Notes: generated by a model from the letters alone, not told the origin. A DNA stretch of 64,000 nt from a virus (IMGVR_UViG_3300030451_004287:64001-128000); one strand, 5' to 3'; positions 862-56,278 are shown, counted from the first letter of the stretch. Program-made: numbers and translations.

Positions 862-890
862 TAGTATTGTACAATAACTAGGAGTAAATT

Positions 891-4052: not shown

Positions 4053-4060
4053 GGAAAATC

Positions 4061-4426: not shown

Positions 4427-4664
4427 TATATTAGCATGGTGTGTATATGGTGTTATTGTAGGTTCAGTTGCTAAAACAATAGTACCGGGTGAAGAAAAAA
4501 TGGGTTTCTTTCAAACAGTTGCCCTCGGTGTTGTTGGTTCTTATATGGGTGGTGCAGCAAATTACTTATTAGGATTCGATGATGCTTTTGGTCCAACAGG
4601 AATTTTTATGGGAATCGCTGGTGGCGTGCTGGCACTAATAACTTATAATAAATTAAAATCATAG
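4419..4664 (+). CDS. GlsB/YeaQ/YmgE (transglycosylase-associated) family membrane protein
   Basis: Three Gly-rich TM helices; W..G.I.G..AK.I.PG and LGVVGSYMGG motifs. Confidence 0.8.
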   Translation: MISILAWCVYGVIVGSVAKTIVPGEEKMGFFQTVALGVVGSYMGGAANYLLGFDDAFGPTGIFMGIAGGVLALITYNKLKS

Positions 4665-4671
4665 GACTTAA

Positions 4672-5514: not shown

Positions 5515-5515
5515 T

Positions 5516-9740: not shown

Positions 9741-9746
9741 ATTATA

Positions 9747-14149: not shown

Positions 14150-14439
14150 CAATTAATGAATATTATAAGAATTATTTATGGTTACATAAAAATCCTAAGT
14201 GTCGTTTGTTACATTTCTTAGGACAATTAGCCACTATTATTTTTATTGCATATACAGTAATGAATTTTTACTGGTTTTTATTTCCTTTAATACCATTTAT
14301 AGTTTATCCCTTTGCATGGTCTGGTCACTATATATTTGAGCAAAATGAACCAGCAGCGTTTAAAAATCCTCTTTACGCTAAAATATCTGACATTATTATG
14401 TTTAAAGATATACTATTAGGGAGACTTTCTATATGGTAA
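14146..14439 (+). CDS. DUF962/Mpo1-like small membrane protein
   Basis: Y...H..P..R.LHF.G, AW.GH..FE.N.PA.F..P and D..M motifs. Confidence 0.8.
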   Translation: MTINEYYKNYLWLHKNPKCRLLHFLGQLATIIFIAYTVMNFYWFLFPLIPFIVYPFAWSGHYIFEQNEPAAFKNPLYAKISDIIMFKDILLGRLSIW

Positions 14440-17023: not shown

Positions 17024-17751
17024 ATGTTAAGGCAGTTTATATACACATTCCCAAAACTGGGGGTACAAGTTTTAAAAAAGTTTTTGAACCTTTTATAAAC
17101 GATCATATTGTAACTGAACAAAGCAAGATTATAAAATATCAAAAAAATTACTATAGAAATGAGTTGTCAGTTATAAATTTTGAGATATCTAATGCTTTAA
17201 GAAATAAAGAAGCATTAGGAGATGAAGTTTGGAAAAATGCTTTTAAGTTTACTCTTGTTAGAAATCCATGGGATAGATATGTGTCAAATTGGAAATGGTT
17301 AACCAGAAAAGAGCGTTTATTTCCCAAGAAAGGATGGCACGCAAGAGGATGGCAAGGCATGGACGGACAAATAACATTTGAAAATTTTGTTAAACAAATA
17401 CAAGCTTGTTATTATGAGTTAACACCTTGGCACTTGTATTGGCATGATAAGTGGCACATAAGAAATCAAATCGAACATATTGTAGATAATAACGACAATA
17501 TTATCGTTGATTATATAGGAAGATTTGAAAATATAGAAAATGAATACAGTTTTATTCGTAAAAAAATTGGATTAGATAATTTAGAACTGCCGCACTTAAA
17601 TCATGATGGTCATTATTCTGGTGAGGAAAAAACACACGATGTTAAGAAAATACATTACTCAAATTATTACAACGATGAATTAATAGATATTGTTTACGAA
17701 AGATGCAAACAAGACATATTAACATTTAACTATGATTTTGAAAGGCAATAG
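17020..17751 (+). CDS. sulfotransferase family 2 protein
   Basis: HIPKTGGTS (5'-PSB), VRNPWDRYVS (3'-PB), GRFE, Y..D...FNY. Confidence 0.85.
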   Translation: MNVKAVYIHIPKTGGTSFKKVFEPFINDHIVTEQSKIIKYQKNYYRNELSVINFEISNALRNKEALGDEVWKNAFKFTLVRNPWDRYVSNWKWLTRKERLFPKKGWHARGWQGMDGQITFENFVKQIQACYYELTPWHLYWHDKWHIRNQIEHIVDNNDNIIVDYIGRFENIENEYSFIRKKIGLDNLELPHLNHDGHYSGEEKTHDVKKIHYSNYYNDELIDIVYERCKQDILTFNYDFERQ

Positions 17752-17754
17752 AAT

Positions 17755-18351
17755 ATGCACGTTACAGAAAAGAAAGTTGCTATACTAAAGAGTTTTTTAG
17801 ATAGTAATGTTACGCTAATAGAAACAGGCACGCATTTAGGTTACACAAGCTCTAATTGTAGTCCATTTTGTAAAGCAGTCCACACTTGCGAAATTAATAT
17901 GGGGTTCGCTAGGCAAGCCGAAAATACTTTCAAGAATTGCCCAAATGTTACTCTACACAAAGAATCGTCGTATGATACTTTACAAAAGATAGCCTCTGGT
18001 GAAATAGCAACGTCTGCTCCATATGTTTTTTGGTTAGATGCGCACATGGGTAATAATGCTGAAGAAGAAAAACAAAAAATACTAGTTAAAGAATTAAATA
18101 TCATAAAAGATCAATTTAAAAAAGAAAATATTAGAGCCTTACTAATTGATGATTCCTGTGGACTTAAACTAGCATCAGAACTTTTGACAGTTCAAGAGTG
18201 CTATGATTTATTATTAGAAATTAATCCAAACTTTAGAATTAGCTCTATATTAAGAGGCGGTCACTATAACGGTCCTACAATCTACGATGCTGATGTTCTT
18301 ATGGCTTATGATGCTGATTTATTTGATATGACTATTAAATTTAGAGAATAA
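17755..18351 (+). CDS. class I SAM methyltransferase-like protein
   Basis: IETGTHLG, CE, FWLDAH and IDD motifs. Confidence 0.65.
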   Translation: MHVTEKKVAILKSFLDSNVTLIETGTHLGYTSSNCSPFCKAVHTCEINMGFARQAENTFKNCPNVTLHKESSYDTLQKIASGEIATSAPYVFWLDAHMGNNAEEEKQKILVKELNIIKDQFKKENIRALLIDDSCGLKLASELLTVQECYDLLLEINPNFRISSILRGGHYNGPTIYDADVLMAYDADLFDMTIKFRE

Positions 18352-34924: not shown

Positions 34925-36385
34925 ATGAAACTTTCAGACAGTGCTGCCGAACGAGCAATCTTGTCAGGTATCTTTAATTATGGTGAAGATGCGTACTTTG
35001 ACATTTGTGATCTCATACAAGAACAATCTTTTACTATAGATAGTAATATCTATATTTACAAATGTTTTAAGCACATTTTTACCAATCATCAAAATCCTAA
35101 AATAGATTTAGCCTTAATATTTTCAGCGGCAGAAGAACTTTCTCTTTCTAAAATACTAACTAAGAAAGATGAAGTACAACACATTAATGCGATAATTAAC
35201 TTTCCTGTAGATAAAGATAATCTACGAAAGTTTGCTGCAAAGATAAAGAAATTAGAAATAGCTAGACTGTTGCAACAGCAGTTGGAAGAAGCTAAAAACA
35301 AAGTTGTTAAAATTAGTGGTAATGAATCTGTTGGTAATATTGTAGGTATTGCTGAAGATATTATATTTAATTTTACATCAATGTTGAATGATGGTGAGGA
35401 TGCGCCTGCTACGCTAGGTTCAGAAATTGATTCTTATCTAGAAGATATTATTAATAATCCTATAGATCAAATTGGAATACCAACAGGGTTTCCAGTGTAT
35501 GATAAAGCTATCGGTGGAGGATTAAGAAAGAATACCGTAAACGTAATTGCCGCTAGACCTAAAACTGGAAAAACTCTTTTATCTGATAACATGAGTTTTA
35601 ATATTGCTAACAACTGTGAAGTTCCTGTATTAAATATGGATACAGAAATGACAAGAGAAGACCATATACACAGAACCTTGGCTATGATGACAGATGTAGA
35701 GATCAATGAAATCGAAACTGGTCAATTCGCTAAGTCTCCATCTAAAAAAGAAAAGGTTACAAAAGCAGCTAATAAACTAAAAAGCCTTAAAATTTTCCAT
35801 AAATCTATAGCGGGTAAACCATTTGAAGATCAATTATCATTAATTCGTAGATGGTTAATAAAAGATGTTGGATTAAATGAAGACGGAACAGCTAAAGATT
35901 GCGTGATATTTTATGACTACCTAAAACTTATGGATAGTCAAGGTGTAAGTCAAGACATGAAAGAATATCAAGTTCTTGGTTTTATGATGACCCAATTACA
36001 CAACTTTGCTACAAAATATAAAGTACCAATCGTAGCTTTTGTTCAGTTGAACAGAGATGGTATTACTAAAGAAAGCACAGATACCGCTAGTGGTTCTGAT
36101 AGAATTATTTGGTTATGTAGTAATTTTACTATATTTAAAAGAAAGTCTGATGAAGAAATTGCTGAAGACGGACCAAATGCTGGTAACAGAAAACTCTTAC
36201 CTGTAATTAGTAGACATGGTGGAGGTTTAGATGATAATGATTACATTAACTGTCACATGGAAGGACAGTTTGCAAAAATTAAAGAAGGTAAAACTAGATT
36301 AGAACTAATGAATAATATTAACTCAGACTCTGACATACAGGAGTATATTGGTGAAAACGATGACCAAGAAATCCCATTCAACTGA
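34925..36385 (+). CDS. dnaB: replicative DNA helicase (DnaB family)
   Basis: AERAIL, IPTGF..YD...GG, ARPKTGKT, TEM, YDYL and QLNR motifs. Confidence 0.93.
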   Translation: MKLSDSAAERAILSGIFNYGEDAYFDICDLIQEQSFTIDSNIYIYKCFKHIFTNHQNPKIDLALIFSAAEELSLSKILTKKDEVQHINAIINFPVDKDNLRKFAAKIKKLEIARLLQQQLEEAKNKVVKISGNESVGNIVGIAEDIIFNFTSMLNDGEDAPATLGSEIDSYLEDIINNPIDQIGIPTGFPVYDKAIGGGLRKNTVNVIAARPKTGKTLLSDNMSFNIANNCEVPVLNMDTEMTREDHIHRTLAMMTDVEINEIETGQFAKSPSKKEKVTKAANKLKSLKIFHKSIAGKPFEDQLSLIRRWLIKDVGLNEDGTAKDCVIFYDYLKLMDSQGVSQDMKEYQVLGFMMTQLHNFATKYKVPIVAFVQLNRDGITKESTDTASGSDRIIWLCSNFTIFKRKSDEEIAEDGPNAGNRKLLPVISRHGGGLDDNDYINCHMEGQFAKIKEGKTRLELMNNINSDSDIQEYIGENDDQEIPFN

Positions 36386-37508
36386 TCAAAACAAACTTAA
36401 AGTTTTGTGTGATCTAATGTGTGATAATATTTTTGACTTATTAGATTACTTTGATATTGACTATAAAGAAAATGGCAAGATGATTAGCATGCCATGTCCT
36501 ATTCATGATGGAGATAATAAATCTGCACTTAATATATATCATGAGGGTGACAGCTATAGAGGTAATTGGAAATGTAGAACTCATGGTTGCGAAGAATGTT
36601 TTAAAGGATCTATCATAGGTTTTGTTAGAGGTGTTTTATCTAACAGAAAAAAGAACTGGATAAAAAATGGAGATGATGTTGTATCATTTAAAGAAGCTTT
36701 AGATTTTTGCACCAAGTTTGTAAATAAAGATCTTGGTGATATCAAAATTTGTGAAGACACTAAAAATAAAAAGAATTTTACTAATGTTATTAATAATATA
36801 TCATCAGATAAACAAAACAATGTACCCACAATTAGTAGAAATAGTATTAGGTCATTACTAGAAATACCATCACAGTATTATATTAATAGGGGATATTCGA
36901 CAGATATTTTAAATAAATACGATGTAGGTCTATGTAGTAGACCAAATAAAGAAATGTCGGGCAGGGTGGTAGTACCTATATACGATGCTAATTATAAAAG
37001 TATGATTGGATGTTCAGGTAGAAGTATTTATGATAAATGTAATAAATGCGGAGGGTTTCACAATCCAGCAGATGCTTGTCCATCTTCTGAAAATTTGTGG
37101 AAATATTCTAAATGGAAACATAATTCTGGATTTAAAGCACAGGATCACCTGTATAACTTTTGGTTTGCTAAAGAGCATATGGCAAAATCGTCTTTTGCTA
37201 TAATCTTAGAGAGTCCGGGTAATGTATGGAAGTTAGAAGAAAACGGTATACATAATAGTGTTGCTATTTTTGGAACAAATTTAAGCGCAAAACAAAAATT
37301 GTTATTAGATAGTTCTGGAGCTATGAGTCTTATTGTTATGATGGATAATGATGAAGCTGGTCATAAAGCAGCACAGGCTATTATAGAAAAATGTAATAGA
37401 ACATATAATACATATTCTTTAACAGTTGAAAAAAATGATATTGGTGAAATGTCAAAAGATGAAATACAAAATCAAATTGTTAATAAAATTAAGGAATTAC
37501 CATTATGA
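36348..37508 (+). CDS. DNA primase (Zn-binding plus TOPRIM domains)
   Basis: CPIH...C...C zinc domain, R...PI, LYN, TOPRIM E(SPGN) and DNDEAG; start may be GTG 36351 or ATG 36360. Confidence 0.85.
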   Translation: MVKTMTKKSHSTDQNKLKVLCDLMCDNIFDLLDYFDIDYKENGKMISMPCPIHDGDNKSALNIYHEGDSYRGNWKCRTHGCEECFKGSIIGFVRGVLSNRKKNWIKNGDDVVSFKEALDFCTKFVNKDLGDIKICEDTKNKKNFTNVINNISSDKQNNVPTISRNSIRSLLEIPSQYYINRGYSTDILNKYDVGLCSRPNKEMSGRVVVPIYDANYKSMIGCSGRSIYDKCNKCGGFHNPADACPSSENLWKYSKWKHNSGFKAQDHLYNFWFAKEHMAKSSFAIILESPGNVWKLEENGIHNSVAIFGTNLSAKQKLLLDSSGAMSLIVMMDNDEAGHKAAQAIIEKCNRTYNTYSLTVEKNDIGEMSKDEIQNQIVNKIKELPL

Positions 37509-38095
37509 TAATAGCATTTGCAGGAAGAAAGCAGTCTGGTAAAGATACATCAGCAGAGTTTGTGTGCAAATTGTTTGAAACTAGCTTACAAGGCTCGTGT
37601 CGTATTTATCACTTTGCTGATCCTCTCAAAAAAAATATATGCATGGATGTTTTAGGTTTAACATATCATCAATGTTATGGATCTGACGAATCTAAAAATG
37701 AATTAGTAGATTGTTGCTGGCCAGATACAAATGAAAAAATGACAGCAAGAGAAGTTATGCAATATGTTGGGACTGATATTTTCAGAAAAATGCAACACAA
37801 TGTATGGGCTAGTGCTACTATTAATAAAATTAAGAACGATAATTTTGATCTATCACTAATAGCAGATTGTCGTTTTCCAAACGAAGTTGAGGCTGTCAAA
37901 CAAGCTGGAGGCTTAGTAATTAAATTAAATAGAAATAACTATCACTCTACACATTCTAGTGAGACAGCATTGGATTCCGCCAACTACGATCAGTCGTGTT
38001 TTGATTTGGTTGTTGATAATATAGATTTAACATTAACACAAAAAAATCAAGTCATTTACGATTTTTTACAGAATAAGGGAATATTACCATCATAA
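37505..38095 (+). CDS. deoxynucleoside monophosphate kinase (T4 gp1-like)
   Basis: GRKQSGKDT, FADPLK, REVMQYVGTD, DCRFPNE and HSSE motifs. Confidence 0.88.
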   Translation: MIIAFAGRKQSGKDTSAEFVCKLFETSLQGSCRIYHFADPLKKNICMDVLGLTYHQCYGSDESKNELVDCCWPDTNEKMTAREVMQYVGTDIFRKMQHNVWASATINKIKNDNFDLSLIADCRFPNEVEAVKQAGGLVIKLNRNNYHSTHSSETALDSANYDQSCFDLVVDNIDLTLTQKNQVIYDFLQNKGILPS

Positions 38096-39120
38096 TTACA
38101 TACTTTCGTAGCTCATCATATAATACGCATAATATGTGTGAGCAACAATACTTTTTTGATTATGTCTTAGGCTATAAACAGCCATCAAACAAAAAAGCAG
38201 ATAAAGGAACGATTGTTCACAAAGCTTTAGAAATTTTAGCTTTTATTAAGTATACTGAACAACAAGATAAAAAAACGTTTATAGATGATATTATTGGTGA
38301 AGTTAATATCAATAATTATAATTTAGATAATATTATTAAACAGGTTTATGACTTTTATTCAAGTAATTTTACACATCATGAATGGAAACCAATAGATTTT
38401 AAAGATTGTTATAAATGGACATACAAAGCTATTAATTATGCTAATGGTATGTTTGATCCGAGAAATAGAAACATACTATATCCTGAACAAAGATTTGATA
38501 TAACTATAGATAAACCTTGGGCAAAATATGATTATGGAGATTTAAAAGGTGAACTTGCTATTAAAGGCACTATAGATTTAATCACTAGACCTAGCGAAGA
38601 CACATTAGAAATTATTGATTGGAAAACTGGTCGTAGATTAGATTGGGCCACAGGACAAGAGAAAACACAGGAGAAATTAGAAAAAGATCCACAGCTTATG
38701 ATCTATTTCTACGCAGCTAAAAAACTATATCCAGAAATTAAAAATTGTATAGTTACAATATTCTTTATTAATGATGGTGGTCCTTTTAGCGTAAGTTTTC
38801 ATAATAATGATTTATTAGCCACAGAAGATTTATTAAGAGAAAAATTTAATAGAATAAAACAATGTAAGTTACCTAGACTAAGCAAAAGTTGGAAATGCAC
38901 TAAATTGTGTATGTACGGTAAAAAAACTTTTGAAGATACACATATACCAGTAATTACGGAATATAGAGATAATCAAATCTGTAATGTTGGAGAGTCAATG
39001 ACTATGTGCGAACAAGTTAAACACGATATCCAACTAAAAGGCATGAAGGAAGTGGTTGACGAATACACAGTTCCCGGTTATAATGTAGGACATTACAAAG
39101 CACCCGGAAGTACGGAATGA
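38089..39120 (+). CDS. PD-(D/E)XK exonuclease, AddB/Cas4-like (probable Fe-S cluster); apparent non-AUG start
   Basis: SSS...C, GTIVHKALE, E, GTIDL, IIDWKTG, QL..Y and C-terminal Cys cluster; frame is open from 38077, first ATG at 38134. Confidence 0.8.
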   Translation: MIITYFRSSSYNTHNMCEQQYFFDYVLGYKQPSNKKADKGTIVHKALEILAFIKYTEQQDKKTFIDDIIGEVNINNYNLDNIIKQVYDFYSSNFTHHEWKPIDFKDCYKWTYKAINYANGMFDPRNRNILYPEQRFDITIDKPWAKYDYGDLKGELAIKGTIDLITRPSEDTLEIIDWKTGRRLDWATGQEKTQEKLEKDPQLMIYFYAAKKLYPEIKNCIVTIFFINDGGPFSVSFHNNDLLATEDLLREKFNRIKQCKLPRLSKSWKCTKLCMYGKKTFEDTHIPVITEYRDNQICNVGESMTMCEQVKHDIQLKGMKEVVDEYTVPGYNVGHYKAPGSTE

Positions 39121-40973
39121 AGAAATATATACCTTTGCATGTGCATACGCACTACTCTTTGTTAGATGGTCTCAGTAAACCTATAGATATTGCTAATAGA
39201 TGTGAAAAAATAGGCGTTCCTAGTTGCGCTATCACAGATCATGGCAATATATCTGGATGTATTCAGTTCTATTCGACAATGAAAAGTCGTGGAATCAAAC
39301 CGATACTAGGTACAGAATTATATCTATGCGACCAATCACCAGAGGTCAAAGATAATTCTAATAAAAAACTTTCTCATATAGTTCTGCTTGCTAAAAATTT
39401 GCAAGGATGGAAAGATCTAATCAATATAGTCTCTGCTTCAAATAAACCAGAACACTATTATTACAAACCTAGACTTGATCTTAATAGTTTATATGAATTA
39501 GTAAATGGAAATATTATATGTTTGTGTGGACATCCCGGATCTTACTTAGCTAATCAAATTTATTCAGAGGGTAAGTTCGTAGACGATAAAACTATTGAGT
39601 CTAAAATAAAAGAATTACAAGATGTGTTTGGACAAGATAATACTTTTGTAGAAATACAAACAATGGATCAAACAAATGAGTATCAACAAAACATAGGATT
39701 GAAATTAAGAGACTTTTGTAAATCTAGACACATTAAAACCGTAGCTAGTTTAGACGCTCATTACTGCGAATCTGAGGATAGTGCTGATCAAAGAATTTTA
39801 TTATGTAGTAATCTTAAACTAACACTACCCCAAGTAGCATCAAAAATAACTAATGACGAAGAGTTTGGATTAAGTAGTTTTTTTAAGTCTGATCAATATC
39901 ATATTCTATCTCATGAAGAAATCAACGCTGTAAATACAGAGGAAGAAATAGAAAACACTAACGTTATAAACGAAATGTGTGAAGAATATGAAATACTTAA
40001 CAAACCTATTTTACCTAACTTTAATTGTCCAGAAGGATTTGCACCAGATGAATATTTAAGACAATTATGTAGAGATGGCTGGAAAGATAAAATACAAGAT
40101 AGTATACCAAAAGAAAATCATGGCGAATATGTAGATAGAGTAAAGTATGAACTAGATGTTTTACAGTCGGCTAACCTATCTAGTTATTTTTTAATTGTTC
40201 AAGATATTGTGAACTATCTTCATAAGAAAGATTGGTTACCGGGTCCGGGTAGAGGTAGTGCTGCTGGTTGTTTAGTATCATACTTAATCGGCATAACTTC
40301 AATCGACCCTATTAAATACAATCTAATTTTTGAAAGATTCTATAATGCAGGGCGAAATACTAAGGATAGAATTTCTATGCCTGATATTGATGTAGACGTA
40401 CCAATCAATCATAGAGAAGAAATTATTAATTATATTAAAGATACTTACGGATCTAACAAAGTATCTCAAATGATTACATATAATACACTAAAAGGTAGAG
40501 GCGCACTGAAAGAAGTATTGAGAGTATATGGTAATATATCTTTTGAAGAAATGAATCAGATTACTAAATGCTTACCTGATGAAGCTAAGATCGCTGATGA
40601 ACTTCAAGAAATGAAAGATGAAAATGGAGAAGCGTCAATTATCCAATGGGCATTGGAAAATAATTCTAAAAAGTTAAAAGATTGGTGTTATCTTAAAGAT
40701 GATAAATTAGAAGGGCCTCTTGCCAAACGTTTTGAACAAGCTATTAGATTAGAAGGAACTAAATACAATCAATCTAAACATGCTGCTGGAATTGCTATAT
40801 CTAGACATGATCTGTCAACAGTATGTCCTATGATTTATGATACTAAAACAAAACAAAATATTGCTGGATTAGAAATGAATGATTTGGAATCATTAGGCAT
40901 TGTAAAATTTGATATTCTTGGTATTGCTTTACTAGATAAAATGATGCAAATTAAACAATATCTGAAAGGTTAA
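39117..40973 (+). CDS. dnaE: DNA polymerase III alpha, N-terminal half (PHP plus palm/thumb)
   Basis: HVHTHYSLLDG, TDHG, GPGRGSAAG, FERF, MPDIDVD, HAAG and KFDILG; ends right after the third catalytic Asp. Confidence 0.93.
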   Translation: MKKYIPLHVHTHYSLLDGLSKPIDIANRCEKIGVPSCAITDHGNISGCIQFYSTMKSRGIKPILGTELYLCDQSPEVKDNSNKKLSHIVLLAKNLQGWKDLINIVSASNKPEHYYYKPRLDLNSLYELVNGNIICLCGHPGSYLANQIYSEGKFVDDKTIESKIKELQDVFGQDNTFVEIQTMDQTNEYQQNIGLKLRDFCKSRHIKTVASLDAHYCESEDSADQRILLCSNLKLTLPQVASKITNDEEFGLSSFFKSDQYHILSHEEINAVNTEEEIENTNVINEMCEEYEILNKPILPNFNCPEGFAPDEYLRQLCRDGWKDKIQDSIPKENHGEYVDRVKYELDVLQSANLSSYFLIVQDIVNYLHKKDWLPGPGRGSAAGCLVSYLIGITSIDPIKYNLIFERFYNAGRNTKDRISMPDIDVDVPINHREEIINYIKDTYGSNKVSQMITYNTLKGRGALKEVLRVYGNISFEEMNQITKCLPDEAKIADELQEMKDENGEASIIQWALENNSKKLKDWCYLKDDKLEGPLAKRFEQAIRLEGTKYNQSKHAAGIAISRHDLSTVCPMIYDTKTKQNIAGLEMNDLESLGIVKFDILGIALLDKMMQIKQYLKG

Positions 40974-40976
40974 ATT

Positions 40977-41165
40977 ATGGTACAGTTTTATGTTATGCCT
41001 GAAGGCGATCCGTTTACCTTTAATGGTAAAAGATACAAGAAGATAAAAGAGGAAAGAGTTAGTTGTTGTAAAATTAAACATAATGCTTTAGACATTGATA
41101 CTAATGAAAAGATAGCTATACAGCCTAAACAAGAAGTTACACCGGTGAGAAGTCATGACGAATAA
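40977..41165 (+). CDS. small hypothetical protein
   Basis: 62 aa with AAGG RBS, filling the gap between dnaE-N and the exonuclease. Confidence 0.6.
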   Translation: MVQFYVMPEGDPFTFNGKRYKKIKEERVSCCKIKHNALDIDTNEKIAIQPKQEVTPVRSHDE

Positions 41166-41865
41166 TAAAATTTGTGTTTTTGATTTTGAGACTGACGGTT
41201 CTGATCCAACAGAATGCAGTCCTGTTCAATTATCTTCAGTTATAGTAGATCCTATTAAGTTAGAAATAGTAAAAGATTCAGAATTTAATATTTACTTAAA
41301 GCCAGAAAAGCTATGCAAGGCTAAGGCTGTATCTATAAATAATCACCCGTATATGGATTCTGATATATTAGAATGGCACGGTAAGGTAAAAGGTGTAGAT
41401 AAAGCCGAAATATTGGAGAGTTGGCTAACCTACCCGGATGCAAAACATTCTTGGAAACAATTTATGGAGTATCTAGAGTCTTACCATCTGTTTAGAAGCG
41501 GCGGTAAAAAGACAAAGTTTTCTGCGCCTATAGCTTCAGGTTATAATATAATTAGTTTTGATATGAAGATTGTAGATCGCTTTGCCAAAAAATACGGAGG
41601 GTACGATAAAAAAGAAAAAGGTAATTCTATATTTCATCCTAGAGACAAAATTGATATCATGAGTCTTGTATATATTTGGTTTAGATATATACCAGAAATT
41701 AAATCAATATCATTGGATAATATTAGAAACTATTTAGGTATTGACGCAACTAATGCTCACGATGCCGTTAAAGATGTAACTGACTGTGCAGAAATACTTA
41801 TCAGATTTTTGAAACTTCATAAAAATTTTGTTAGTAAGATAAAGTTTAAAGACTCATTTAAATGA
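41155..41865 (+). CDS. DEDDh 3'-5' exonuclease (DnaQ/epsilon-like)
   Basis: ExoI FDFETDG, ExoII GYNIISFD, ExoIII AHDAVKD. Confidence 0.88.
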   Translation: MTNNKICVFDFETDGSDPTECSPVQLSSVIVDPIKLEIVKDSEFNIYLKPEKLCKAKAVSINNHPYMDSDILEWHGKVKGVDKAEILESWLTYPDAKHSWKQFMEYLESYHLFRSGGKKTKFSAPIASGYNIISFDMKIVDRFAKKYGGYDKKEKGNSIFHPRDKIDIMSLVYIWFRYIPEIKSISLDNIRNYLGIDATNAHDAVKDVTDCAEILIRFLKLHKNFVSKIKFKDSFK

Positions 41866-43454
41866 AAAAAATAAAATTTAAATCTTGTGGTTGTGTTTTC
41901 CCATCTCACAACAATCATATAGAATATAACATTGACATATCAAATCTAGATTTAGAATGTAAATCTACATGGGATATCATAGGTAGTGGTAATACTAAAG
42001 GATGTTTCCAGCTAGAGTCTAGATTAGGGCAAATGATGTCCAAAAAACTCAAGCCAGAAAACATAGAACAGTTAGCAGCTTTAATTAGTATTATGCGTCC
42101 CGGCTGTTTGGAGGCGTACAGAGATGGTAAAAGCGTTAGTGATCACTACATAGACAAAAAAAATGGTATTGAATCTATAGATTATTTTCACCCATCTCTA
42201 GAACCTGTATTAAAAACAACCTATGGAGAAATGATTTATCAAGAACAGGCGATGGAAATAGCAAAAGTTATTGCTGGTTTTGGATTAGAAGAAGCGGATG
42301 TTCTTAGAAAAGCTATTGGTAAGAAAAAAGTAGATCTTATGAATAGCGTTAAAAAATCTTTTATACTAGGAGCACAAAAAACTAATGTAGTTTCTAAAGA
42401 AATCGCTGAAGAAATATTTGGATGGATCGAAAAAAGTCAAAGATATAGTTTTAATAAATCTCATGCTATTAGTTATGCCTTGAATGCATACTTATCAGCA
42501 TACTCTAAAGCACATTTTCCTGCTCATTTTTTTGCGTCTTATTTAAAGTTTGCGCAAGACAAGATTGATCCAATGAAAGAGATTTATGAACTTATAAATA
42601 ATTGCAGAGAAATGGATATTGATGTATACAAACCAGATTTTAGAAAGCTCTCAAGATCTTTTACTATAGATGATGATAAGAATATATATTTCGGTTTAAC
42701 AAATATTAAAGGTGTTGGAGAATCAGTATGTAACAAAATAGAAATTTTAGTGAAAGATATGGACTTGGAAAATATGTCATATCTAGAAACACTATTTAAA
42801 ATTTTAGATAAAATCAATCAAACCGCTAGTAAAGCTATGATTAGTGTGGGTTGTTTTGATTATTTAAATGTTGGTAGAAGAGAGATGTTATTTCATTTTA
42901 GTCTTATAAATGATCTGACAAAAAAAGAAAAAGATACTATATCAGCAAATCTTGAGTCATTAGCTTCTTTAGAAGATTGTTTACATTTCCTTGACGATAA
43001 AGTAAACATAAGAAGAAAACAAAAAGTATTAGCTGTATTACATACTCTTAAAAATCCTCCATATAAACTTGAAGACAGTTGTCTGTGGATAGCAGATCAA
43101 GAAAATCAACTACTGGGCATAAGTATTACATGCTCAAAAATAGATGAATACAGTTTAGAAAATGTTAACTCAACATGTAGAGATTTAAATAATGATAAAT
43201 GTATTTATAAGAATATTATTCTAGGAATAGAAATTAAAGAAGTTAATGTAATTAAAACAAAACGCGGAGCAAATCCGGGTCAAGAAATGTGTTTTGCTAA
43301 AGTGTCAGATAATACTGGAGGCGTAGATATTGTTGTATTTCCAGAACAATACGCTAAATATAAAGACGTACTACAAACTGACACAACAGCTATCCTAAGC
43401 CTAGAAAAATCTAAAAATGACAGTCTTATAGTTAAAAAAATTTGGCAGTTATAA
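41862..43454 (+). CDS. dnaE: DNA polymerase III alpha, C-terminal half (fingers, HhH, OB fold)
   Basis: GCFQLES, RPG, TYG..IYQEQ.M, RKAIGKK, YSFNKSHA, GL..IKGVG, E..LLG and OB-fold motif KTKRG..M.F. Confidence 0.92.
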   Translation: MKKIKFKSCGCVFPSHNNHIEYNIDISNLDLECKSTWDIIGSGNTKGCFQLESRLGQMMSKKLKPENIEQLAALISIMRPGCLEAYRDGKSVSDHYIDKKNGIESIDYFHPSLEPVLKTTYGEMIYQEQAMEIAKVIAGFGLEEADVLRKAIGKKKVDLMNSVKKSFILGAQKTNVVSKEIAEEIFGWIEKSQRYSFNKSHAISYALNAYLSAYSKAHFPAHFFASYLKFAQDKIDPMKEIYELINNCREMDIDVYKPDFRKLSRSFTIDDDKNIYFGLTNIKGVGESVCNKIEILVKDMDLENMSYLETLFKILDKINQTASKAMISVGCFDYLNVGRREMLFHFSLINDLTKKEKDTISANLESLASLEDCLHFLDDKVNIRRKQKVLAVLHTLKNPPYKLEDSCLWIADQENQLLGISITCSKIDEYSLENVNSTCRDLNNDKCIYKNIILGIEIKEVNVIKTKRGANPGQEMCFAKVSDNTGGVDIVVFPEQYAKYKDVLQTDTTAILSLEKSKNDSLIVKKIWQL

Positions 43455-43455
43455 C

Positions 43456-43485
43456 TTGACATATTGATAGCTAATTGTACTATAG
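43456..43485 (+). promoter_or_regulatory. sigma70-type promoter TTGACA-N16-TACTAT(AG) upstream of ssb
   Basis: Consensus -35 and near-consensus -10, intergenic, followed by AAGGAG RBS. Confidence 0.65.
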
Positions 43486-43529
43486 AAGGTATTGAAAACT
43501 ATTCGTTTTGAACTTTAAAAGGAGATGAT

Positions 43530-43904
43530 ATGAATCTTATTGTATTAAAGGGTAATCTTGCTCGTGATCCAGACCTGCGATCAATCACCACAGGTAACAG
43601 GGATACTTCTGTTGTAAATTTTACGGTAGCTGTTTCTAGGGAATATAGGAAATCAGACGGTACTACTGATAAGAATACAACATTTGTAAATTGCGAAGCA
43701 TGGGACAGTGGAGCAGAGGCTATTGCATCTACTTTTAAAAAGGGCGATCTAGTTATGCTAGAAGGTTCTTTGCGTAATGATAACTGGGAAAAAGATGGTG
43801 TTAAGCATTCATCTATGAAAGTTCGTGTCAGCAATTTTGGTAAAATTCAAAAAACTAAAAAGTCTTCCGCAAAGACAGAAGATGAAGCTGTAACAGCATT
43901 CTAG
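43530..43904 (+). CDS. ssb: single-stranded DNA-binding protein
   Basis: MN...L.GNL.RDP.LR, F.VAV, F.NCEAW, KG..V..EG.L...W motifs; acidic tail ending in Phe. Confidence 0.93.
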   Translation: MNLIVLKGNLARDPDLRSITTGNRDTSVVNFTVAVSREYRKSDGTTDKNTTFVNCEAWDSGAEAIASTFKKGDLVMLEGSLRNDNWEKDGVKHSSMKVRVSNFGKIQKTKKSSAKTEDEAVTAF

Positions 43905-50844: not shown

Positions 50845-53800
50845 TTAAAATCCACCATCTTTAGTATATGGATCACCATCTGGTCCGTATACACTTGGTC
50901 CAGTATCTTCCTCACATTCGCCACTATCAACATTTTTTAAACAACTTTGCTCAATTCCATCTTTCGCAAGAGGAATCGTTACATTTTTATAATTTCTTCT
51001 ACCATGAGGGTCAAGGAAATCCGCTGTAGTATGAACATAACAATCTCCTTTACAACTTGGTTTAACTTTATATATAAAACCTACATTACTAGCTCCACCT
51101 CTTGGTTGAGCAGGCCAAGTACCATCATACTCTTCTGGAGTATTAGGCCATCTGCCATTCCAACAAATTCGTCTATCAGGAAATTTTGTTCCAAATGTAC
51201 CTTCTTGCCATTTGTAACCAGCATTGTTACCTCCCAGATAGCCGGGCAAATTGGTATTGGTTCCGGGGAAATTTGGTAGTTTACCTTGAAGCCAAGGGAA
51301 GTTTTCTATAGCTTCGCCGCCACCAAATTGACCTTCAAGCATAGCCTGTACTACCGCTTGAACCTCTTCAGCCGTAATAGTTTCTCCCTCATTTTGTGCA
51401 ATTATAAGTATTTGTTGAGTATATAATTGTTGATACAGATAATGATGTATATATTCCTGTTTGGGTTCAAAAAATAATTCTTCTGCATCCCAATTAACAG
51501 TAATTGAACCACCATTAGCTCCCTCTGCGGTAAAACCCCAGCTACCGGGATCTGCACACTCAACAAAACCTGTGCCATAATAACTATTTTCACAACCTTT
51601 ACAACTCGCTAAGTAATCATCTCTAACCTGCCACCACCACTGTTCACAATACGGAGCATAGTTTCTTGGAAAGGTTATGCCTTGATCTGCAAGAGCTGCT
51701 GCTTTTTGTTTTTGAAATTCGTCAAGTGCTGAACCTACATACCACTGTTCTGATTTTAGCACTGTTCCATCGTCCTGAAAACCAAAAGTCCCAGTCATAT
51801 ACGACTCATCAGGAACACTAGTTACTCCAGTTAGTGTCCATTTCCATCGACCTCCACCTCCTGTAGCTTGCATACATTCTAATGTTAATGTAGCTGACGT
51901 ACCACCATCAATGTCGTTATCATTCCAAGTGCTTTGATCTGTTGGGTCTCCATCACCCCAAGGATTTGTCGAACCTAGCAGACAATGAGATCCTCCAAAA
52001 TTTATTGTTACTACAGGACATCCTGAAGATTTAGGTCTGTCACAACAATTCATAACAACTGCGCCAGTATCAGGATCAGTATATCTCCCTCCAAAATCTA
52101 TACTCGTAGTATTCACAGAAAATCTATAATCACCGTGAATCATATTAGAATGAACATATTCTGCTGCAGGACCGGGTTGAACTTCACAATCATCATTAAT
52201 CCCAACAATCATACCAAAGTCTGATTGTGGTCCAGCAGTGTCAAACTGAGCTTCTGCAGTATCTGGATCCCACATGCTTGGAAGACAACCTCCACCACCT
52301 GTTGTTCCTCCGGGACTAATTGACATATATATAGCTGTGCGTCTACTCCATACTTGTTGACCAAAATCTTGATGGTCAAATATGCCTACTTTTTTAAGTA
52401 TATCACGGTCACCTGCCTGAACAACTTGACCAAAAGAACTAGCTACACCAACTGGTACTCCACCGCCCATATTAGCCAATCTACTCGCAGAAAATGGACT
52501 ACAAGCACAATTACTACAACAATAGTAAGGATCGTTATCACCACAAACATCGGCTGTGCTTTGTCTAGCATAATTTAAAGGCATATTTTCATAAGGCTTA
52601 CCACCGCCCTCATTTGTACAATAAGGTCCCGGACCACCCTTGCTTCCTCTAATATCTATAAACTCACCTTCATCATTAAATACCGGATACCTAATTAAAA
52701 AACCGGTAGAGCTGTCATAGTAAGGCTCTTTCCAATCTACATTAAAATCTTCTTGTCTTTTAAAATTAAAATCACCAGCTAATACTGCTCCATAACAAGG
52801 GTTATATCCACCAAAATGATCAAAATCTGGTCTTATTTCTTTCATTTGACTAGTAATAAGCAATCCACTACAACCATATTTTAGAGGTAAATCTAAATCA
52901 TAATACTTATTTCTATCTAAATTATGAACATGAAGACTATCATCGTCACCAGTTTTTTCTTCTCCATCAATAGTTAGCCCTGCTCTCGACCCAATAATAT
53001 TAGCATGTTGATAACAAGTACTAGAAGCACCATTATCTATCATAATAGTACCAGTGCCTAAAGGTTTTATTTTATTAATGTGTCTATTATCCAAGAAAAG
53101 ACTAACTTCAGGAGTAAGTGTTAATGCTCCTTCACCTATCAACTTATCTCCATCAGGGTCTATAATACCTGTTATAACTCCTTCACATGTAACTAATAAC
53201 TGCGCGTATCCTCCTTTACCATAGTAATAACCTTGACAAGCATCATCGAATGGGAAATTATAAGGATAAAAATTAGTTGTATTTGCGTCACCAACAGGAT
53301 TAAATTTTAATGATTGAGGACTATATGGTAACTCTCCACCAGCTCCATCGTCTTTATTTGTTCTTACAAATTGAAAATATCTAGGATCATAAGGATAATC
53401 TTTTAACATTGCAGAATATGGAGTAATAGGCAAATGATCTCTTGACTCTTCTTCACGCATTTGCTTATTACTAACTCCTAAATAAGCTCCGTATAATCTA
53501 CTATATGTATTATCATGACCATGCCTAGTAATATAGTCTGGTCTATGAGTAGGTACTATAGTATGACACTCTCCAAAAACAGCACTTTCACCTCTAAATC
53601 CTTGAACATAAGCATGATAATCATGAGTGCATTGAGTGAAAGGAAATGGCACCAAAGAAGCATTAGGACCTTCTGCTATAGCTTTAGCTTGATCTGCAAG
53701 ATCATTAGTAAACTTTTTATAAAAAGGCAAAGTTTCTGCATGTACAGACGCTGGGACTATATTGTATACTGAACCGTAATTCGGAATATAATACATTTGC

Positions 53801-56271
53801 ATGTACCCTTGACAACCACCGGGTACTGGTAGAAATAAAGGTAGATCAAGCGGCCCAACAGCAGTTTTAGTACTATCTGTTACGTTAGCAGAAAGAGGTA
53901 GTCTTTGCATAGTATTAATATAAAAAGAATTTGTCCAAAGAGGTCTGTTAGATCTTAAAGCACAACTCATATAAACTTCGTTATCAGATACTTTGGTAAC
54001 TCCATCTCCTCCTCGTATATTCTGCATATCACCAAAAAATACCATTTCATAAAAAGGCATATCATTACCCGGCAAACCTCGTGGACTTGGAGGAGCCTGA
54101 TCACCATTAAAATGAGTTGTTAAAGGATTACCATCTCTGTCTTTAACTTGACACACTACAGAACCGGGAACTTTCGTACCGGCATCTCTTTGCGCTTGAT
54201 AATCTCCATTAGCAGGTAAATAATAACCGTCAGTCTCACTAAAAGGCACAACATGTAGTACCTTACTACCTTCTGGAACAAAAGGACCAAATACAGGCAT
54301 ACCAGCATATAAATTTGATACATCATCAATACTACTTAATTCAAATAAACCATTAGCTCTAGCATTAGCTGGACTTCCCATAAACTGCCCACCAGCAAAT
54401 ATAAACTGAGTTAAATAATTAGGATGAACGCACCATTTAGCAAAATCTGTTCTTCCTTTAATAAAGCCAGTAGTCATTTTGGTTTCATCAGCAATTTTTG
54501 AATTAGAACCTGCACTACTATCAATGCCATGAAAAGCTAAATCTGTTAAATTTGTTACATCTATAATTTTATCAGGACCATTTGTTTTAATTCTTAAATT
54601 AAATGTAGCATGACCGGCATTTTCAAGATCACCCAAATTCATAACTTCAACAATATATTGCCTAACATGCATACTATCGTTATGGTTAAATCTCCAATTA
54701 TTAAAATTATTTACATCTTCTAATTTATAACAGTGTGGGTGTTGACGGTCTCCTCTAGCTTCTAAATTGTGTGAAAAATAATTTGGACCACCTGTACTTA
54801 TATATGGTTTAGCTGTTCCATCTACACTTGCTCTAAATCGTCCGGGAGGGGTATCTACTTGTGCCTCTGGTTCTTGGTAAGCAGCAGGCCAGTTCCTTCT
54901 GTGAACATAATAAAGATTTAAATGAATATCTGTATTACTAACATTTTGCCATTCTACTTCTTCACTTGAAGTTAACTGTATACGATTAGTTACATCATTA
55001 AGTGCTTTTTCTTCATCACTTGCATCTTCTGGAAAATCTCTTACTTGTCCGAATTGGTCCACTCGTGGCTTGCTGTATAAATAATGAATACCTCTTTCTG
55101 ATGGTACAAAAAATGGCGTATTGTCAAAATAGTTTAACATTCTAAACTTATATTTACCGGGCCATTTAGTGCTTTTTAGAAAAGGGTTTGCGTCAGCTAT
55201 ACCACTTATAATTATTGACTTTTGTTCATCATCTGTAAATTGTAATGTAGGAACACCAATTTCCATTCTTAAGTCTTGCAGAAATGGTATAAGATTTGCT
55301 GCATCTTCAAGACCCCCATCAATATCACCTTGGCGACGTCTAAGGTAACTATTAAATAAATGAAATTGATCACTATTAAAATCAGTAGCATCTCCCATTT
55401 CACCTAATACAATTTTATCGTAACCAACATCTCCAGCAAGAGCTATATATGGATTATCAATAATATTTCCATTACCCATATCCCATGTTGTGTTCCAAGG
55501 ATTAACTCTAGGATCTCTCATAGCATTCCAAAGATTTCTACCAAATACTTCTTTGCCTAATAATTGAGCATGATCTAAACCTATGTTTTCGACACCGTTA
55601 AACTTAAAACTTCTATCGTAATCAATTCCTTCATCAGTTTCTGCTGGTACAATAATCTCATCGCCATCAAAAGTTACACTAATAGAATCAATAGGCTTTC
55701 TGATAAATTTTTCACCCAAAATAGGATGATCATATTTTGCATGATTTCCTTGAACGTCTTCTATATCAGCAGTAAATAAAGTAGGAACATTAAATAAAGT
55801 TGTAGAAACATTTACATCATTTGGGTTATCTTTATCTTCGGAAAAAACTGGTGTAGAAGTCACAGTACTAATACAAGTACCACGATCTTGGGTGGGTTTT
55901 TCAAATTTTTTATAAAAACCTGATTCTGCATGTTTAGCTAAAGCTAATGGCCCAAATGTAGCATCATCCTTTAATATTGATTTATCTTCGTCAACAAGAC
56001 CTAAAGTTTTTAATAAATGTCCACAATATTTATTAATAATATTAAAAGTTTCTAATTTATCTTGTTGATTTAATTCTTTTAAAGACCCATTAATTTCGTG
56101 AGTATCTAAATTTATAAAAGTTACTTCAAATTGTGGGTCGTAATTTTTTAATATTATACTAGATAATGTCCTAGCACTATCTGAAACTAGTAAATCCTTA
56201 TCATCTCGAATCCTTAAAAGAGTTAATAATAACTTCTCATCTGAAATTTCATCATATTTTATATTATACAT
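50845..56271 (-). CDS. 1808-aa Gly/Cys/Asp-rich protein, putative virion/tail (receptor-binding) protein
   Basis: Very long ORF in the structural block; no enzymatic motif recognised. Confidence 0.55.
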   Translation of the reverse strand: MYNIKYDEISDEKLLLTLLRIRDDKDLLVSDSARTLSSIILKNYDPQFEVTFINLDTHEINGSLKELNQQDKLETFNIINKYCGHLLKTLGLVDEDKSILKDDATFGPLALAKHAESGFYKKFEKPTQDRGTCISTVTSTPVFSEDKDNPNDVNVSTTLFNVPTLFTADIEDVQGNHAKYDHPILGEKFIRKPIDSISVTFDGDEIIVPAETDEGIDYDRSFKFNGVENIGLDHAQLLGKEVFGRNLWNAMRDPRVNPWNTTWDMGNGNIIDNPYIALAGDVGYDKIVLGEMGDATDFNSDQFHLFNSYLRRRQGDIDGGLEDAANLIPFLQDLRMEIGVPTLQFTDDEQKSIIISGIADANPFLKSTKWPGKYKFRMLNYFDNTPFFVPSERGIHYLYSKPRVDQFGQVRDFPEDASDEEKALNDVTNRIQLTSSEEVEWQNVSNTDIHLNLYYVHRRNWPAAYQEPEAQVDTPPGRFRASVDGTAKPYISTGGPNYFSHNLEARGDRQHPHCYKLEDVNNFNNWRFNHNDSMHVRQYIVEVMNLGDLENAGHATFNLRIKTNGPDKIIDVTNLTDLAFHGIDSSAGSNSKIADETKMTTGFIKGRTDFAKWCVHPNYLTQFIFAGGQFMGSPANARANGLFELSSIDDVSNLYAGMPVFGPFVPEGSKVLHVVPFSETDGYYLPANGDYQAQRDAGTKVPGSVVCQVKDRDGNPLTTHFNGDQAPPSPRGLPGNDMPFYEMVFFGDMQNIRGGDGVTKVSDNEVYMSCALRSNRPLWTNSFYINTMQRLPLSANVTDSTKTAVGPLDLPLFLPVPGGCQGYMQMYYIPNYGSVYNIVPASVHAETLPFYKKFTNDLADQAKAIAEGPNASLVPFPFTQCTHDYHAYVQGFRGESAVFGECHTIVPTHRPDYITRHGHDNTYSRLYGAYLGVSNKQMREEESRDHLPITPYSAMLKDYPYDPRYFQFVRTNKDDGAGGELPYSPQSLKFNPVGDANTTNFYPYNFPFDDACQGYYYGKGGYAQLLVTCEGVITGIIDPDGDKLIGEGALTLTPEVSLFLDNRHINKIKPLGTGTIMIDNGASSTCYQHANIIGSRAGLTIDGEEKTGDDDSLHVHNLDRNKYYDLDLPLKYGCSGLLITSQMKEIRPDFDHFGGYNPCYGAVLAGDFNFKRQEDFNVDWKEPYYDSSTGFLIRYPVFNDEGEFIDIRGSKGGPGPYCTNEGGGKPYENMPLNYARQSTADVCGDNDPYYCCSNCACSPFSASRLANMGGGVPVGVASSFGQVVQAGDRDILKKVGIFDHQDFGQQVWSRRTAIYMSISPGGTTGGGGCLPSMWDPDTAEAQFDTAGPQSDFGMIVGINDDCEVQPGPAAEYVHSNMIHGDYRFSVNTTSIDFGGRYTDPDTGAVVMNCCDRPKSSGCPVVTINFGGSHCLLGSTNPWGDGDPTDQSTWNDNDIDGGTSATLTLECMQATGGGGRWKWTLTGVTSVPDESYMTGTFGFQDDGTVLKSEQWYVGSALDEFQKQKAAALADQGITFPRNYAPYCEQWWWQVRDDYLASCKGCENSYYGTGFVECADPGSWGFTAEGANGGSITVNWDAEELFFEPKQEYIHHYLYQQLYTQQILIIAQNEGETITAEEVQAVVQAMLEGQFGGGEAIENFPWLQGKLPNFPGTNTNLPGYLGGNNAGYKWQEGTFGTKFPDRRICWNGRWPNTPEEYDGTWPAQPRGGASNVGFIYKVKPSCKGDCYVHTTADFLDPHGRRNYKNVTIPLAKDGIEQSCLKNVDSGECEEDTGPSVYGPDGDPYTKDGGF

Positions 56272-56278
56272 ATATTTA

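Follow-up and report, generated by a model that had tools for sequence, protein, structure and literature searches.

Gene content and layout of the split dnaE locus

Bacteria replicate their DNA mainly with C-family polymerases, which to our knowledge have been regarded as one-chain enzymes, the intein-joined DnaE of cyanobacteria being the exception. The locus analysed here is from an uncultured aquatic phage of ~160 kb (IMGVR_UViG_3300030451_004287) and lies in a 64,000-nt window covering positions 64001–128000, from the first letter of which all coordinates are counted. The chain of a DnaE-type polymerase is interrupted by a stop codon at 40971–40973 and restarts at a new start codon at 41862, with two protein genes in the 888-nt gap and the two halves, dnaE-N and dnaE-C, in different reading frames (Table 1). 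Across the four genes, successive stops and starts show a 3-nt spacing, an 11-nt overlap and an ATGA overlap at 41862–41865, the last being the sharing of the exonuclease TGA with the dnaE-C ATG that had been noticed in the initial annotation. Coupling signals were present in the junction DNA between the genes, no terminator-like site was found on the + strand inside the module, and the four genes can be read from the sequence as one translationally coupled unit.

Table 1. Features of the split dnaE locus and its flanks, in window coordinates.
Feature	Position	Strand	Basis or remark
Upstream replication module: DnaB helicase, Toprim primase, dNMP kinase, PD-(D/E)XK nuclease	34925..39120	+	Pfam; order common to relatives
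dnaE-N, PHP + palm + thumb half of C-family polymerase, 618 aa	39117..40973	+	ORF; Pfam; alignment
Catalytic Asp pair D423/D425, PDIDVD motif	40383..40391	+	Invariant in 30; aligns with Taq MPDIDTD block
Third catalytic Asp D599, KFDILG	40911..40913	+	Invariant; 19 residues ahead of stop codon
N-half tail, 16-aa helix-like peptide IALLDKMMQIKQYLKG and TAA stop; upstream edge of break	40923..40973	+	
Small ORF, 62-aa SH3-like protein	40977..41165	+	ORF; HMM; AF2
DnaQ-superfamily DEDDh 3'-5' exonuclease, 236 aa	41155..41865	+	ORF; Pfam RNase_T; phrog_192
dnaE-C, head + fingers + HhH + OB half, 530 aa	41862..43454	+	ORF; Pfam; alignment; AF2
Split-specific head: M-x(3)-F-x-S-C9-G-C11-x-F beta-hairpin, variable linker, Cys33 at helix N-terminus	41862..41960	+	
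FNKSH, classical cyanobacterial DnaE split-intein site, uninterrupted	42450..42464	+	Translation
SSB directly downstream of dnaE-C	43530..43904	+	Pfam SSB; position kept in relatives

Alignment of both halves placed the break in the palm/fingers loop, at E. coli alpha ~563–581. PHROG 405 was covered at positions 41–615 by dnaE-N and 618–1072 by dnaE-C, and the break is therefore clean; the only residues unaccounted for by DnaE homology at the junction are 16 on one side and ~20 on the other. Palm, fingers and DEDDh exonuclease were each matched once in the genome, and none of the PolA, PolB, beta-clamp and clamp-loader models searched gave a match, which, so far as these models reach, makes the split DnaE the only detectable DNA polymerase of a phage with a genome of 140–160 kb. 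The contig ends are homologous to each other at ~70% identity, an odd divergent overlap, so that the label 'complete genome' fits imperfectly; the dnaE locus lies in the middle of the contig, untouched by this oddity.

The polymerase halves and the proteins encoded between them

The dnaE-N product matched the Pfam PHP domain at residues 7–182 (3.8e-38) and the whole DNA_pol3_alpha palm model (PF07733) at 312–602, with an alignment spanning residues 5–562 of E. coli alpha and 6–631 of Taq alpha. The PHP metal ligands (H8, H10, D17, H42, E67, H87, H139, D213 and H215) were kept in 25–29 of 30 sequences, and the catalytic D423, D425 and D599 were invariant among 30 relatives. The initial annotation of a 618-aa protein with a PHP domain and three catalytic Asp was thus borne out, as was the position of its stop codon, which had been put about 16 aa past KFDILG and follows after exactly 16 residues.

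For dnaE-C, described beforehand as a 530-aa protein resuming at the next conserved block with fingers, HhH and OB domains, Pfam returned DNA_pol3_finger (PF17657) at 20–174 (9e-46) and HHH_6 (PF14579) at 253–342 (9e-10), whereas the OB match fell below the cut-off, the corresponding strands being modelled at 451–529 (AF2, pLDDT 86). DnaE homology restarts at LDLECKSTWDIIGSGNTKGCFQLES, in agreement with that description, and the half aligns with E. coli alpha 582–1056. No conserved QL[SD]LF-like clamp-binding motif was recognised, and the alignment of dnaE-C to E. coli alpha stops at 1056. The cyanobacterial split-intein site was, as annotated, uninterrupted, with YSFNKSH continuous at residues 195–201.

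The extra N-terminal KSCGC peptide pointed out on dnaE-C proved to be the most conserved feature specific to the split form. C9, G10, C11, F13, C33 and W37 were invariant in 29 C-half sequences, including relatives of just 34–37% identity, and 119 of 120 stand-alone C halves had the C-x-C-x-F head, while both the head and the third Cys were missing from the fused relatives P0037, P0038 and P0065. The AF2 model of the head shows strands at 2–5 and 12–16 and a helix at 34–42, forming a hairpin and a helix N-cap.

Both genes reported in the gap were recovered as ORFs. The exonuclease, which gave the single RNase_T match of the genome and also matched phrog_192 ('DNA polymerase exonuclease subunit'), has DEDDh residues D10, E12, D136, H202 and D207 that are invariant in relatives. 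Its best solved-structure matches were the PolC exonuclease domain, Exo I and DnaQ, with the PolC domain and Exo I ahead of epsilon, and its conserved C-terminal tail, [IV]KFK[DG]SF, shows no established likeness to the peptide by which E. coli epsilon binds the PHP domain of alpha. The protein is assigned to the DnaQ superfamily and is not demonstrably an epsilon orthologue.

The 62-aa protein was modelled as an all-beta SH3-like barrel (AF2 pLDDT 91), with fold matches of the KOW/Tudor/EF-P domain I type (Z up to 5.4) and an invariant Ser-Cys-Cys (codons 41061–41069) at an exposed hairpin tip. Its HMM matched at the gap position in all 81 split loci of the sub-clade and in none of six fused or three distant split loci, and in the distant split forms its place is taken by UDG or by small ORFs that are not homologous to it. 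From its sequence and distribution, the protein is probably an accessory subunit in this sub-clade: its position is perfectly kept, it is under purifying selection and translationally coupled with both neighbours, and the exposed Ser-Cys-Cys is invariant. A little short of even odds may be given to an enzyme of three parts (N half, C half and exonuclease), with the 62-aa protein being carried along as something unrelated, for instance a regulator or host-interaction factor, which would fit its restriction to one sub-clade, its replacement by other genes elsewhere, its generic fold and the finding of no fusion to any replicase part.

Conservation of the break and alternatives to a two-piece enzyme

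When the breakpoint and gene order were looked up in related phages, both were the same in 80 of 80 fetched IMG/VR loci, many of them from different samples, with C halves 53–78% identical. The N-half tail after KFDILG measured 16–24 residues across 81 sub-clade loci, and among the best 150 representative clusters ~127 (~85%) were N halves (38–64% identity) ending 12–37 residues past K-x-D-x-LG. At 90% identity clustering, there were 3,453 clusters of stand-alone size (291–928 aa) that matched C-half residues 1–200. All four genes are under purifying selection, with dN/dS values, computed on pairs with unsaturated dS, of 0.008–0.03 for the N half, 0.025–0.033 for the C half, 0.011–0.026 for the exonuclease and 0.05–0.18 for the small ORF. 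In relatives the gap reaches up to several kb and holds unrelated genes (UDG, ThyX or a DUF1559 prepilin-like gene); such tolerance of extra genes indicates that the halves are independent cistrons. Sister phages with a fused DnaE (P0012, P0038 and P0065) share the synteny of the replication module.

These data bear directly on whether the split gene is a pseudogene in decay or a product of faulty assembly, of which the divergent end overlap of the contig might be taken as a sign. Recurrence on 80 contigs, many of them from different samples, shows that it is not an assembly error, and the relaxed selection considered as a refutation in the initial annotation was not seen either: the architecture is repeated in thousands of protein clusters, both halves evolve at dN/dS 0.01–0.03, the catalytic residues are all invariant and the genome gave no match to another polymerase family. 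Conservation and selection effectively rule this explanation out. Only marginally more credible is the rejoining of the halves after transcription or translation into a single-chain DnaE, by a group I/II intron, a trans-splicing intein or translational bypass, even in a lineage rich in such elements. [quoted passage not shown] The same Pfam search that detects intein pieces at other sites in relatives found no Hint or Intein domain in either dnaE half, in line with the annotated absence of intein motifs at the junctions, and no homing endonuclease family was matched in the gap (Pfam, PHROG). Even a mini-intein is roughly 130 residues, so the residues left over at the junction are far too few for a Hint fold. 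Rfam gave no intron across 38800–43800, which takes in the gap and its surroundings, and no frameshift was found; the reading frames differ, and the gap consists of two protein genes under purifying selection and is filled with several kb of unrelated genes in some relatives.

A third explanation, improbable though less so than the preceding two, is that the halves are now independent proteins, the N half, for instance, working with some other partner as a PHP nuclease or gap-filler and the C half serving to bind DNA or as an adaptor. The intact PHP ligands are compatible with this, as are the P0109 representative, in which the N half is fused to an unrelated C-terminal domain, and the description by Iyer et al. 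2021 (PMC7824862) of a minimal Pol III catalytic module split between genes that lie far apart. Against it, all loci examined have the dnaE halves side by side in one orientation, the searches found no other polymerase that could replicate 140–160 kb, and fused relatives join exactly these two pieces. The active site, as known from the Taq alpha ternary complex, moreover needs both the palm carboxylates and the dNTP-contacting residues of the fingers.

Proposed assembly and relation to known polymerases

It is therefore proposed, at a probability of roughly 80%, that the sole replicative polymerase of this phage is a naturally split DnaE-type C-family enzyme whose parts would assemble non-covalently. 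This supports the non-covalent phage replicase of two to four subunits put forward in the initial annotation, each element of which that could be checked was confirmed. The N half would supply PHP, the palm with its three catalytic Asp and the thumb, and the C half the fingers, the HhH DNA-binding module and the OB fold, with the cut predicted to sit in a surface loop leading from the last palm helix to the fingers. The gap-encoded exonuclease would be the proofreading subunit, and translational coupling would favour matched subunit synthesis. The C half seems to have gained a split-specific N-terminal hairpin with a C-x-C and a third Cys at a helix N-cap, and we infer that this head may be a small metal-stabilised knuckle that caps the new N-terminus or docks it onto the N half, thereby standing in for the lost peptide bond. 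More tentatively, and with the odds against it, the split may have made a new joint in which a zinc-type C-x-C/Cys clasp on the C half docks the N half and is lost on re-fusion, the SH3-like Ser-Cys-Cys protein adding a ligand or clamp in the sub-clade. The head has only three conserved ligands, which counts against a metal knuckle, and distant split forms keep the C-x-C head without the Ser-Cys-Cys protein, so the two Cys motifs need not occur together. If the clasp reading were true, it would document a natural route by which an essential enzyme survives fission and fusion.

With single-chain DnaE (E. coli 2HNH/5FKU, T. aquaticus 2HPI/3E0D) the phage enzyme shares the domain order PHP, palm, thumb, fingers, HhH and OB, the catalytic triad and the PHP ligands, but it differs in its two polypeptides, the added C-x-C head, the exonuclease gene inside the cut and a C half that ends at about E. 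coli residue 1056, apparently without the tau-binding C-terminal domain. E. coli Pol III core (alpha-epsilon-theta) and PolC likewise pair a C-family polymerase with a DEDDh proofreader; in PolC the exonuclease domain is inside PHP, whereas in the phage a separate exonuclease gene lies between the polymerase halves. Theta and HOT are small helical proteins that bind epsilon, and the small third gene of the phage invites comparison with theta, but its product is modelled as an all-beta barrel and no theta or HOT structure was among its listed fold matches, which in itself is not proof.

Split polymerases are already known as a kind, and the phage DnaE is a further form among them. Cyanobacterial split DnaE (Ssp/Npu DnaE split intein) also has two dnaE genes, but the phage has no intein, another break site and an intact FNKSH. 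In the fractured genes of aquatic phage-like DNA (Dassa et al. 2009, PMC2677866), both parts lie in one locus and orientation, separated by a free-standing homing endonuclease that is usually accompanied by a split intein; the phage dnaE shares the first feature and not the intein and endonuclease, while its relatives L010 and L085 are genuine fractured-gene examples. Intein-free split phage enzymes include Aeromonas phage gp43A/gp43B (Petrov and Karam) and Aeh1 NrdA, as cited in PMC2677866, and the PhiKZ family B DNAP-N/DNAP-C, which form a stable 1:1 complex (PMC13648687). As replicative phage polymerases in two separately translated, non-covalently assembling pieces, the split family B enzymes are the best functional analogy to the proposed two-piece phage DnaE; the present enzyme, however, belongs to family C, has other break points and embeds a proofreading gene, whereas in family B the exonuclease is part of the chain and no proofreader gene lies within the split. 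Group 2.2 jumbo phages encode a C-family catalytic module as two proteins from distant genes, cut inside the nucleotidyltransferase core, without PHP and other domains and beside a family B polymerase (Iyer et al. 2021, PMC7824862), unlike the present full-length enzyme with PHP, fingers, HhH and OB, adjacent genes and no PolB match. No paper describing an intein-free two-piece DnaE with an exonuclease gene in the gap was found in the literature. Newly noted here are the C-x-C-x-F head with its third Cys, the SH3-like Ser-Cys-Cys protein and the split inteins in some fused relatives.

In a very large clade of uncultured aquatic phages, the one replicase that could be detected may thus long have functioned in two non-covalently associated pieces, with a proofreader gene in the break. 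Such a history would be a natural test of the positions at which Pol III alpha withstands cutting without loss of function, and would offer a candidate docking motif with natural fused controls without the motif in sister phages, as well as a ready-made two-piece DnaE scaffold for mechanism work and protein engineering. There is also an annotation matter, in that where sources name the genes, both halves carry the same plain label, 'DNA polymerase III subunit alpha'.

Architecture of the split polymerase

The four open reading frames (ORFs) that the initial annotation had placed at 39117-43454 were all recovered at exactly those positions (see table). The N half showed a PHP domain (residues 7-182) and a complete DNA_pol3_alpha palm (residues 312-602, model positions 1-260 of 260) in Pfam, and its catalytic residues D423, D425 and D599 were invariant in 30 sequences, in agreement with the PHP domain and three catalytic Asp first ascribed to it; the nine PHP metal ligands were retained in 25-29 of the 30. 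The C half matched DNA_pol3_finger (20-174) and HHH_6 (253-342), together with a sub-threshold OB match, and the phage DnaE profile phrog_405 was matched by the N half over positions 41-615 and by the C half over 618-1072. In comparisons with solved structures, as had been proposed for E. coli DnaE, the N half aligned with E. coli alpha 5-562 and Taq alpha 6-631 and the C half with E. coli alpha 582-1056, which places the break at a domain boundary (palm/fingers), in the loop following the last palm helix and 19 residues past the third catalytic Asp. The C half ends within or shortly past the OB fold and probably lacks the tau-binding domain, its alignment to E. coli alpha ending at 1056.

Genes of the split polymerase module (window coordinates); dN/dS was computed only on pairs with unsaturated dS
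Gene	Position	Strand	ORF length (aa)	dN/dS
dnaE-N (N half)	39117-40973	+	618	0.008-0.03
small ORF	40977-41165	+	62	0.05-0.18
exonuclease	41155-41865	+	236	0.011-0.026
dnaE-C (C half)	41862-43454	+	530	0.025-0.033

The gene between the halves was confirmed as a DEDDh exonuclease, with D10, E12, D136, H202 and D207 all invariant and a conserved [IV]KFK[DG]SF tail at the C-terminus. Its closest solved structures were the PolC exonuclease domain, Exo I and DnaQ, so that the protein belongs to the DnaQ superfamily and is not demonstrably an epsilon orthologue. Palm, fingers and DEDDh exonuclease each gave a single match genome-wide, and none of the PolA, PolB, beta-clamp and clamp-loader models searched had a match in the genome; since no other polymerase model matched, the split enzyme is the sole recognisable replicase.

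Rejoining of the halves by an intein or an intron was weighed against their use as separate chains. No intein domain was found by Pfam in either half, as the earlier description of an intein-free junction implied, and intein pieces detected by Pfam at other sites in relatives provided a positive control for this search. A DnaE counterpart is lacking for only 16 residues past KFDILG and about 20 at the C-half N-terminus, far below what the Hint fold requires. Intron families gave no Rfam match at permissive thresholds within 38800-43800, nor in four relatives. The two halves do not share a reading frame, and two genes, both under purifying selection, fill the 888 nt between them. The small-ORF ATG lies 3 nt past the N-half TAA and is preceded by a GAAAGG site, the start of the exonuclease gene overlaps the small ORF by 11 nt, and the end of the exonuclease gene shares ATGA with the start of dnaE-C, where a stop/start overlap had been noted. 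No terminator-like site was found on the + strand within the module, and the junction DNA looks, by its sequence, like that of a coupled operon. Non-covalent assembly of a two-piece replicase is the reading we favour, with a probability of about 0.8.

Conservation and history of the split

The window makes up the middle part of an IMG/VR virus record of 159,659 bp, and 245 IMG/VR relatives of the C half were found, 80 of which (53-78% identity) were fetched for gene-order comparison. In all of these with sufficient upstream sequence the breakpoint was identical and the order dNMP kinase, PD-(D/E)XK nuclease, dnaE-N, small ORF, exonuclease, dnaE-C, SSB, glycosyltransferase was kept, so that both features singled out in the initial annotation for comparison among related phages were the same throughout. 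In an exhaustive HMMER search with the N half against 1.84 billion representatives, the 150 best clusters (38-64% identity) included about 127 whose proteins were 540-690 aa long and ended 12-37 residues past the K-x-D-x-LG motif. A search with C-half residues 1-200 retrieved 3,453 clusters (clustered at 90% identity) in the stand-alone size range; wherever the source gives a name, it is simply ‘DNA polymerase III subunit alpha’. Among distant split forms (38-44% identity) the N half ... exonuclease, C half and SSB were retained, with uracil-DNA glycosylase (UDG) or other small ORFs of 87-142 aa in the gap. Locus L080 had two additional ORFs between exonuclease and C half. This variable gap cargo argues that the halves are independent cistrons. 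The gaps with UDG are at L088:7926-9708 and L091:2767-3571, and another relative (L072:3356-5986) carries a DUF1559 prepilin-like gene and thyX between exonuclease and C half. No cultured relative was apparent, as megablast against GenBank phages gave no match and the best tblastn identities were only 32% for the C half and 25% for the terminase.

Six of the 150 best representatives were continuous across the window's junction. P0012, P0038 and P0065 are full-length fused DnaE proteins, as is P0003, whose fingers contain an intein; P0004 and P0037 are fused at the window's break but broken at the classical cyanobacterial FNK|C site, with a Hint-like tail at the end. At the P0037 locus (L085:682-5381) the N part with this tail is followed by a free-standing 315-aa ORF and then the C part. 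Genomes with fused forms have the same replication module as those with split forms, their exonuclease gene being located downstream of the glycosyltransferase or directly upstream of dnaE. In trees rooted on E. coli DnaE and Moorella/Gordonia phage DnaE, all 139 in-group proteins formed one clade, and in the best trees the fused forms made up two supported sub-clades nested among split forms, which suggests that they may be secondary re-fusions. This is kept only as a suggestion since a single clade of split forms was not rejected by the AU test (lnL difference 53.6, p = 0.138). Either topology supports a single ancient split.

Further interruptions were seen in the same neighbourhood of some relatives. 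In L010:2044-5120 (also L041 and L043) a split intein interrupts dnaE-N at GRG|SAAG (aa 380) and makes the N-half gene a ‘fractured gene’ in its own right, with Intein_splicing matches on both pieces and a free-standing 264-aa endonuclease-like ORF between them. In L016:2116-5109 (also L033-L035, L040, L062, L063 and L065) a second dnaE-N break lies just upstream of the catalytic PDIDVD; the first piece closes with a degenerate junction copy, the gap contains a LAGLIDADG ORF and the following piece opens with a non-homologous leader of about 88 aa. Neither an intein nor an Rfam intron was detected at this break or, for Rfam, in the L016 insertion, so that either DnaE is made in three pieces there or an intron escaped detection. 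The PD-(D/E)XK nuclease upstream of dnaE (L016:14-2002, also L033, L049 and others) has an in-frame LAGLIDADG insertion of about 315 aa, most simply an intein. In L081:3205-4933 dnaE-N is apparently frameshifted near aa 420-456, for which either a sequencing error or a programmed event may be responsible. P0109 (762 aa) carries, after the N half, an extra C-terminal domain of about 160 aa with a GGQTGAD motif that by eye looks SLOG/MoCo-carrier-type.

Candidate assembly elements and known split polymerases

Split C halves begin M-x(2-4)-[FY]-x-C-x-C-x-F, and C9, G10, C11, F13, C33 and W37 were invariant in 29 sequences, including relatives of just 34-37% identity. The extra N-terminal KSCGC peptide pointed out on dnaE-C is part of this head, and C-x-C-x-F was present in 119 of 120 stand-alone C halves examined; the single exception looks N-terminally truncated. 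In fused P0037, P0038 and P0065 a short loop takes the place of the head, and both C-x-C and the third Cys are missing. AlphaFold modelled the C half with a pLDDT of 86 (76-79 for the head) and predicts a head folded into a beta-hairpin of strands 2-5 and 12-16 whose turn carries C-x-C. Cys33 is at the N-terminus of helix 34-42, and the predicted arrangement is reminiscent of a zinc knuckle combined with a helix cap. We infer that the head might bind metal and dock on the N half; a docking role is tentative, with the odds somewhat against it.

The 62-aa protein was modelled (pLDDT 91) as an all-beta, SH3-like barrel with an invariant Ser-Cys-Cys at a hairpin tip, whereas theta/HOT proteins are helical. 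Fold searches returned nothing beyond generic matches to SH3, KOW, Tudor and EF-P domain I folds (Z up to 5.4), giving no functional assignment, and its ESM Atlas look-alikes were confined to its own family of hypothetical viral proteins. A Rosetta-stone search, which is weak evidence, found no longer protein with this domain. The corresponding HMM matched at the same position in 81/81 split loci of the window's sub-clade, in 0/6 fused-form loci and in 0/3 distant split loci, indicating a sub-clade-restricted accessory and no universal partner of the C-x-C head. The idea that head and Ser-Cys-Cys form one shared metal site is weakened, since distant split forms retain the head without a detectable Ser-Cys-Cys protein. 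Complex prediction with the small protein as scored partner of N half 300-618, C half 1-345 and the exonuclease gave a score of 0.00, which speaks neither for nor against binding; the chances that the small protein belongs to the polymerase assembly are roughly even.

Both cyanobacterial split DnaE and the ‘fractured genes’ described by Dassa et al. 2009 need split inteins, and the latter additionally carry a homing endonuclease in the gap (PMC2677866), whereas the window's DnaE has neither. The minimal Pol III catalytic module of Iyer et al. 2021 is a different entity, devoid of PHP, cut within the nucleotidyltransferase core and encoded by distant genes accompanied by a family B polymerase (PMC7824862). 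The best functional analogies are two intein-free split family B polymerases, Aeromonas phage gp43, as cited in PMC2677866, and PhiKZ DNAP-N/DNAP-C, which form a 1:1 complex (PMC13648687). In the literature searched, no account was found of a full-length DnaE divided between palm and fingers with its proofreader gene inside the break, and nothing on this split appeared in the papers on PaBG (PMC7412058) and Bacillus V4 phages (PMC10674732) or in a 2026 bacterial polymerase survey (PMC12926913). The two-piece, intein-free C-family replicase with its embedded proofreader gene is real, ancient and strongly selected.

Organisation of the source record

Positions 1-18247 of the full record (G000:C1) are collinear with 141600-159659, outside the window (loci L096 and L097), at only ~69-74% nucleotide identity, and two copies of the terminase large subunit, 72% identical, lie 141.6 kb apart. 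The record is probably a unit of ~141.6 kb plus a divergent overlap, which makes the ‘CheckV 100%’ label imprecise; the overlap arose either through a chimeric wrap-around between two strains or as a genuine divergent duplication. Phage contigs of the clade, one of 141 kb, are placed in bacterial MAGs in GenBank (L098-L101), likely by mis-binning, and a host assignment from these bins was rejected, the four close relatives carrying inconsistent taxonomy (Chitinophagia, Flavobacteriales, Alphaproteobacteria and unclassified ‘bacterium’). Within the window, two giant ORFs of 1,808 and 1,960 aa on the minus strand (50845-62161) matched no PHROG family at E <= 1e-5, and the point at ~50.3 kb where the genes change strand is also where GC skew reverses.
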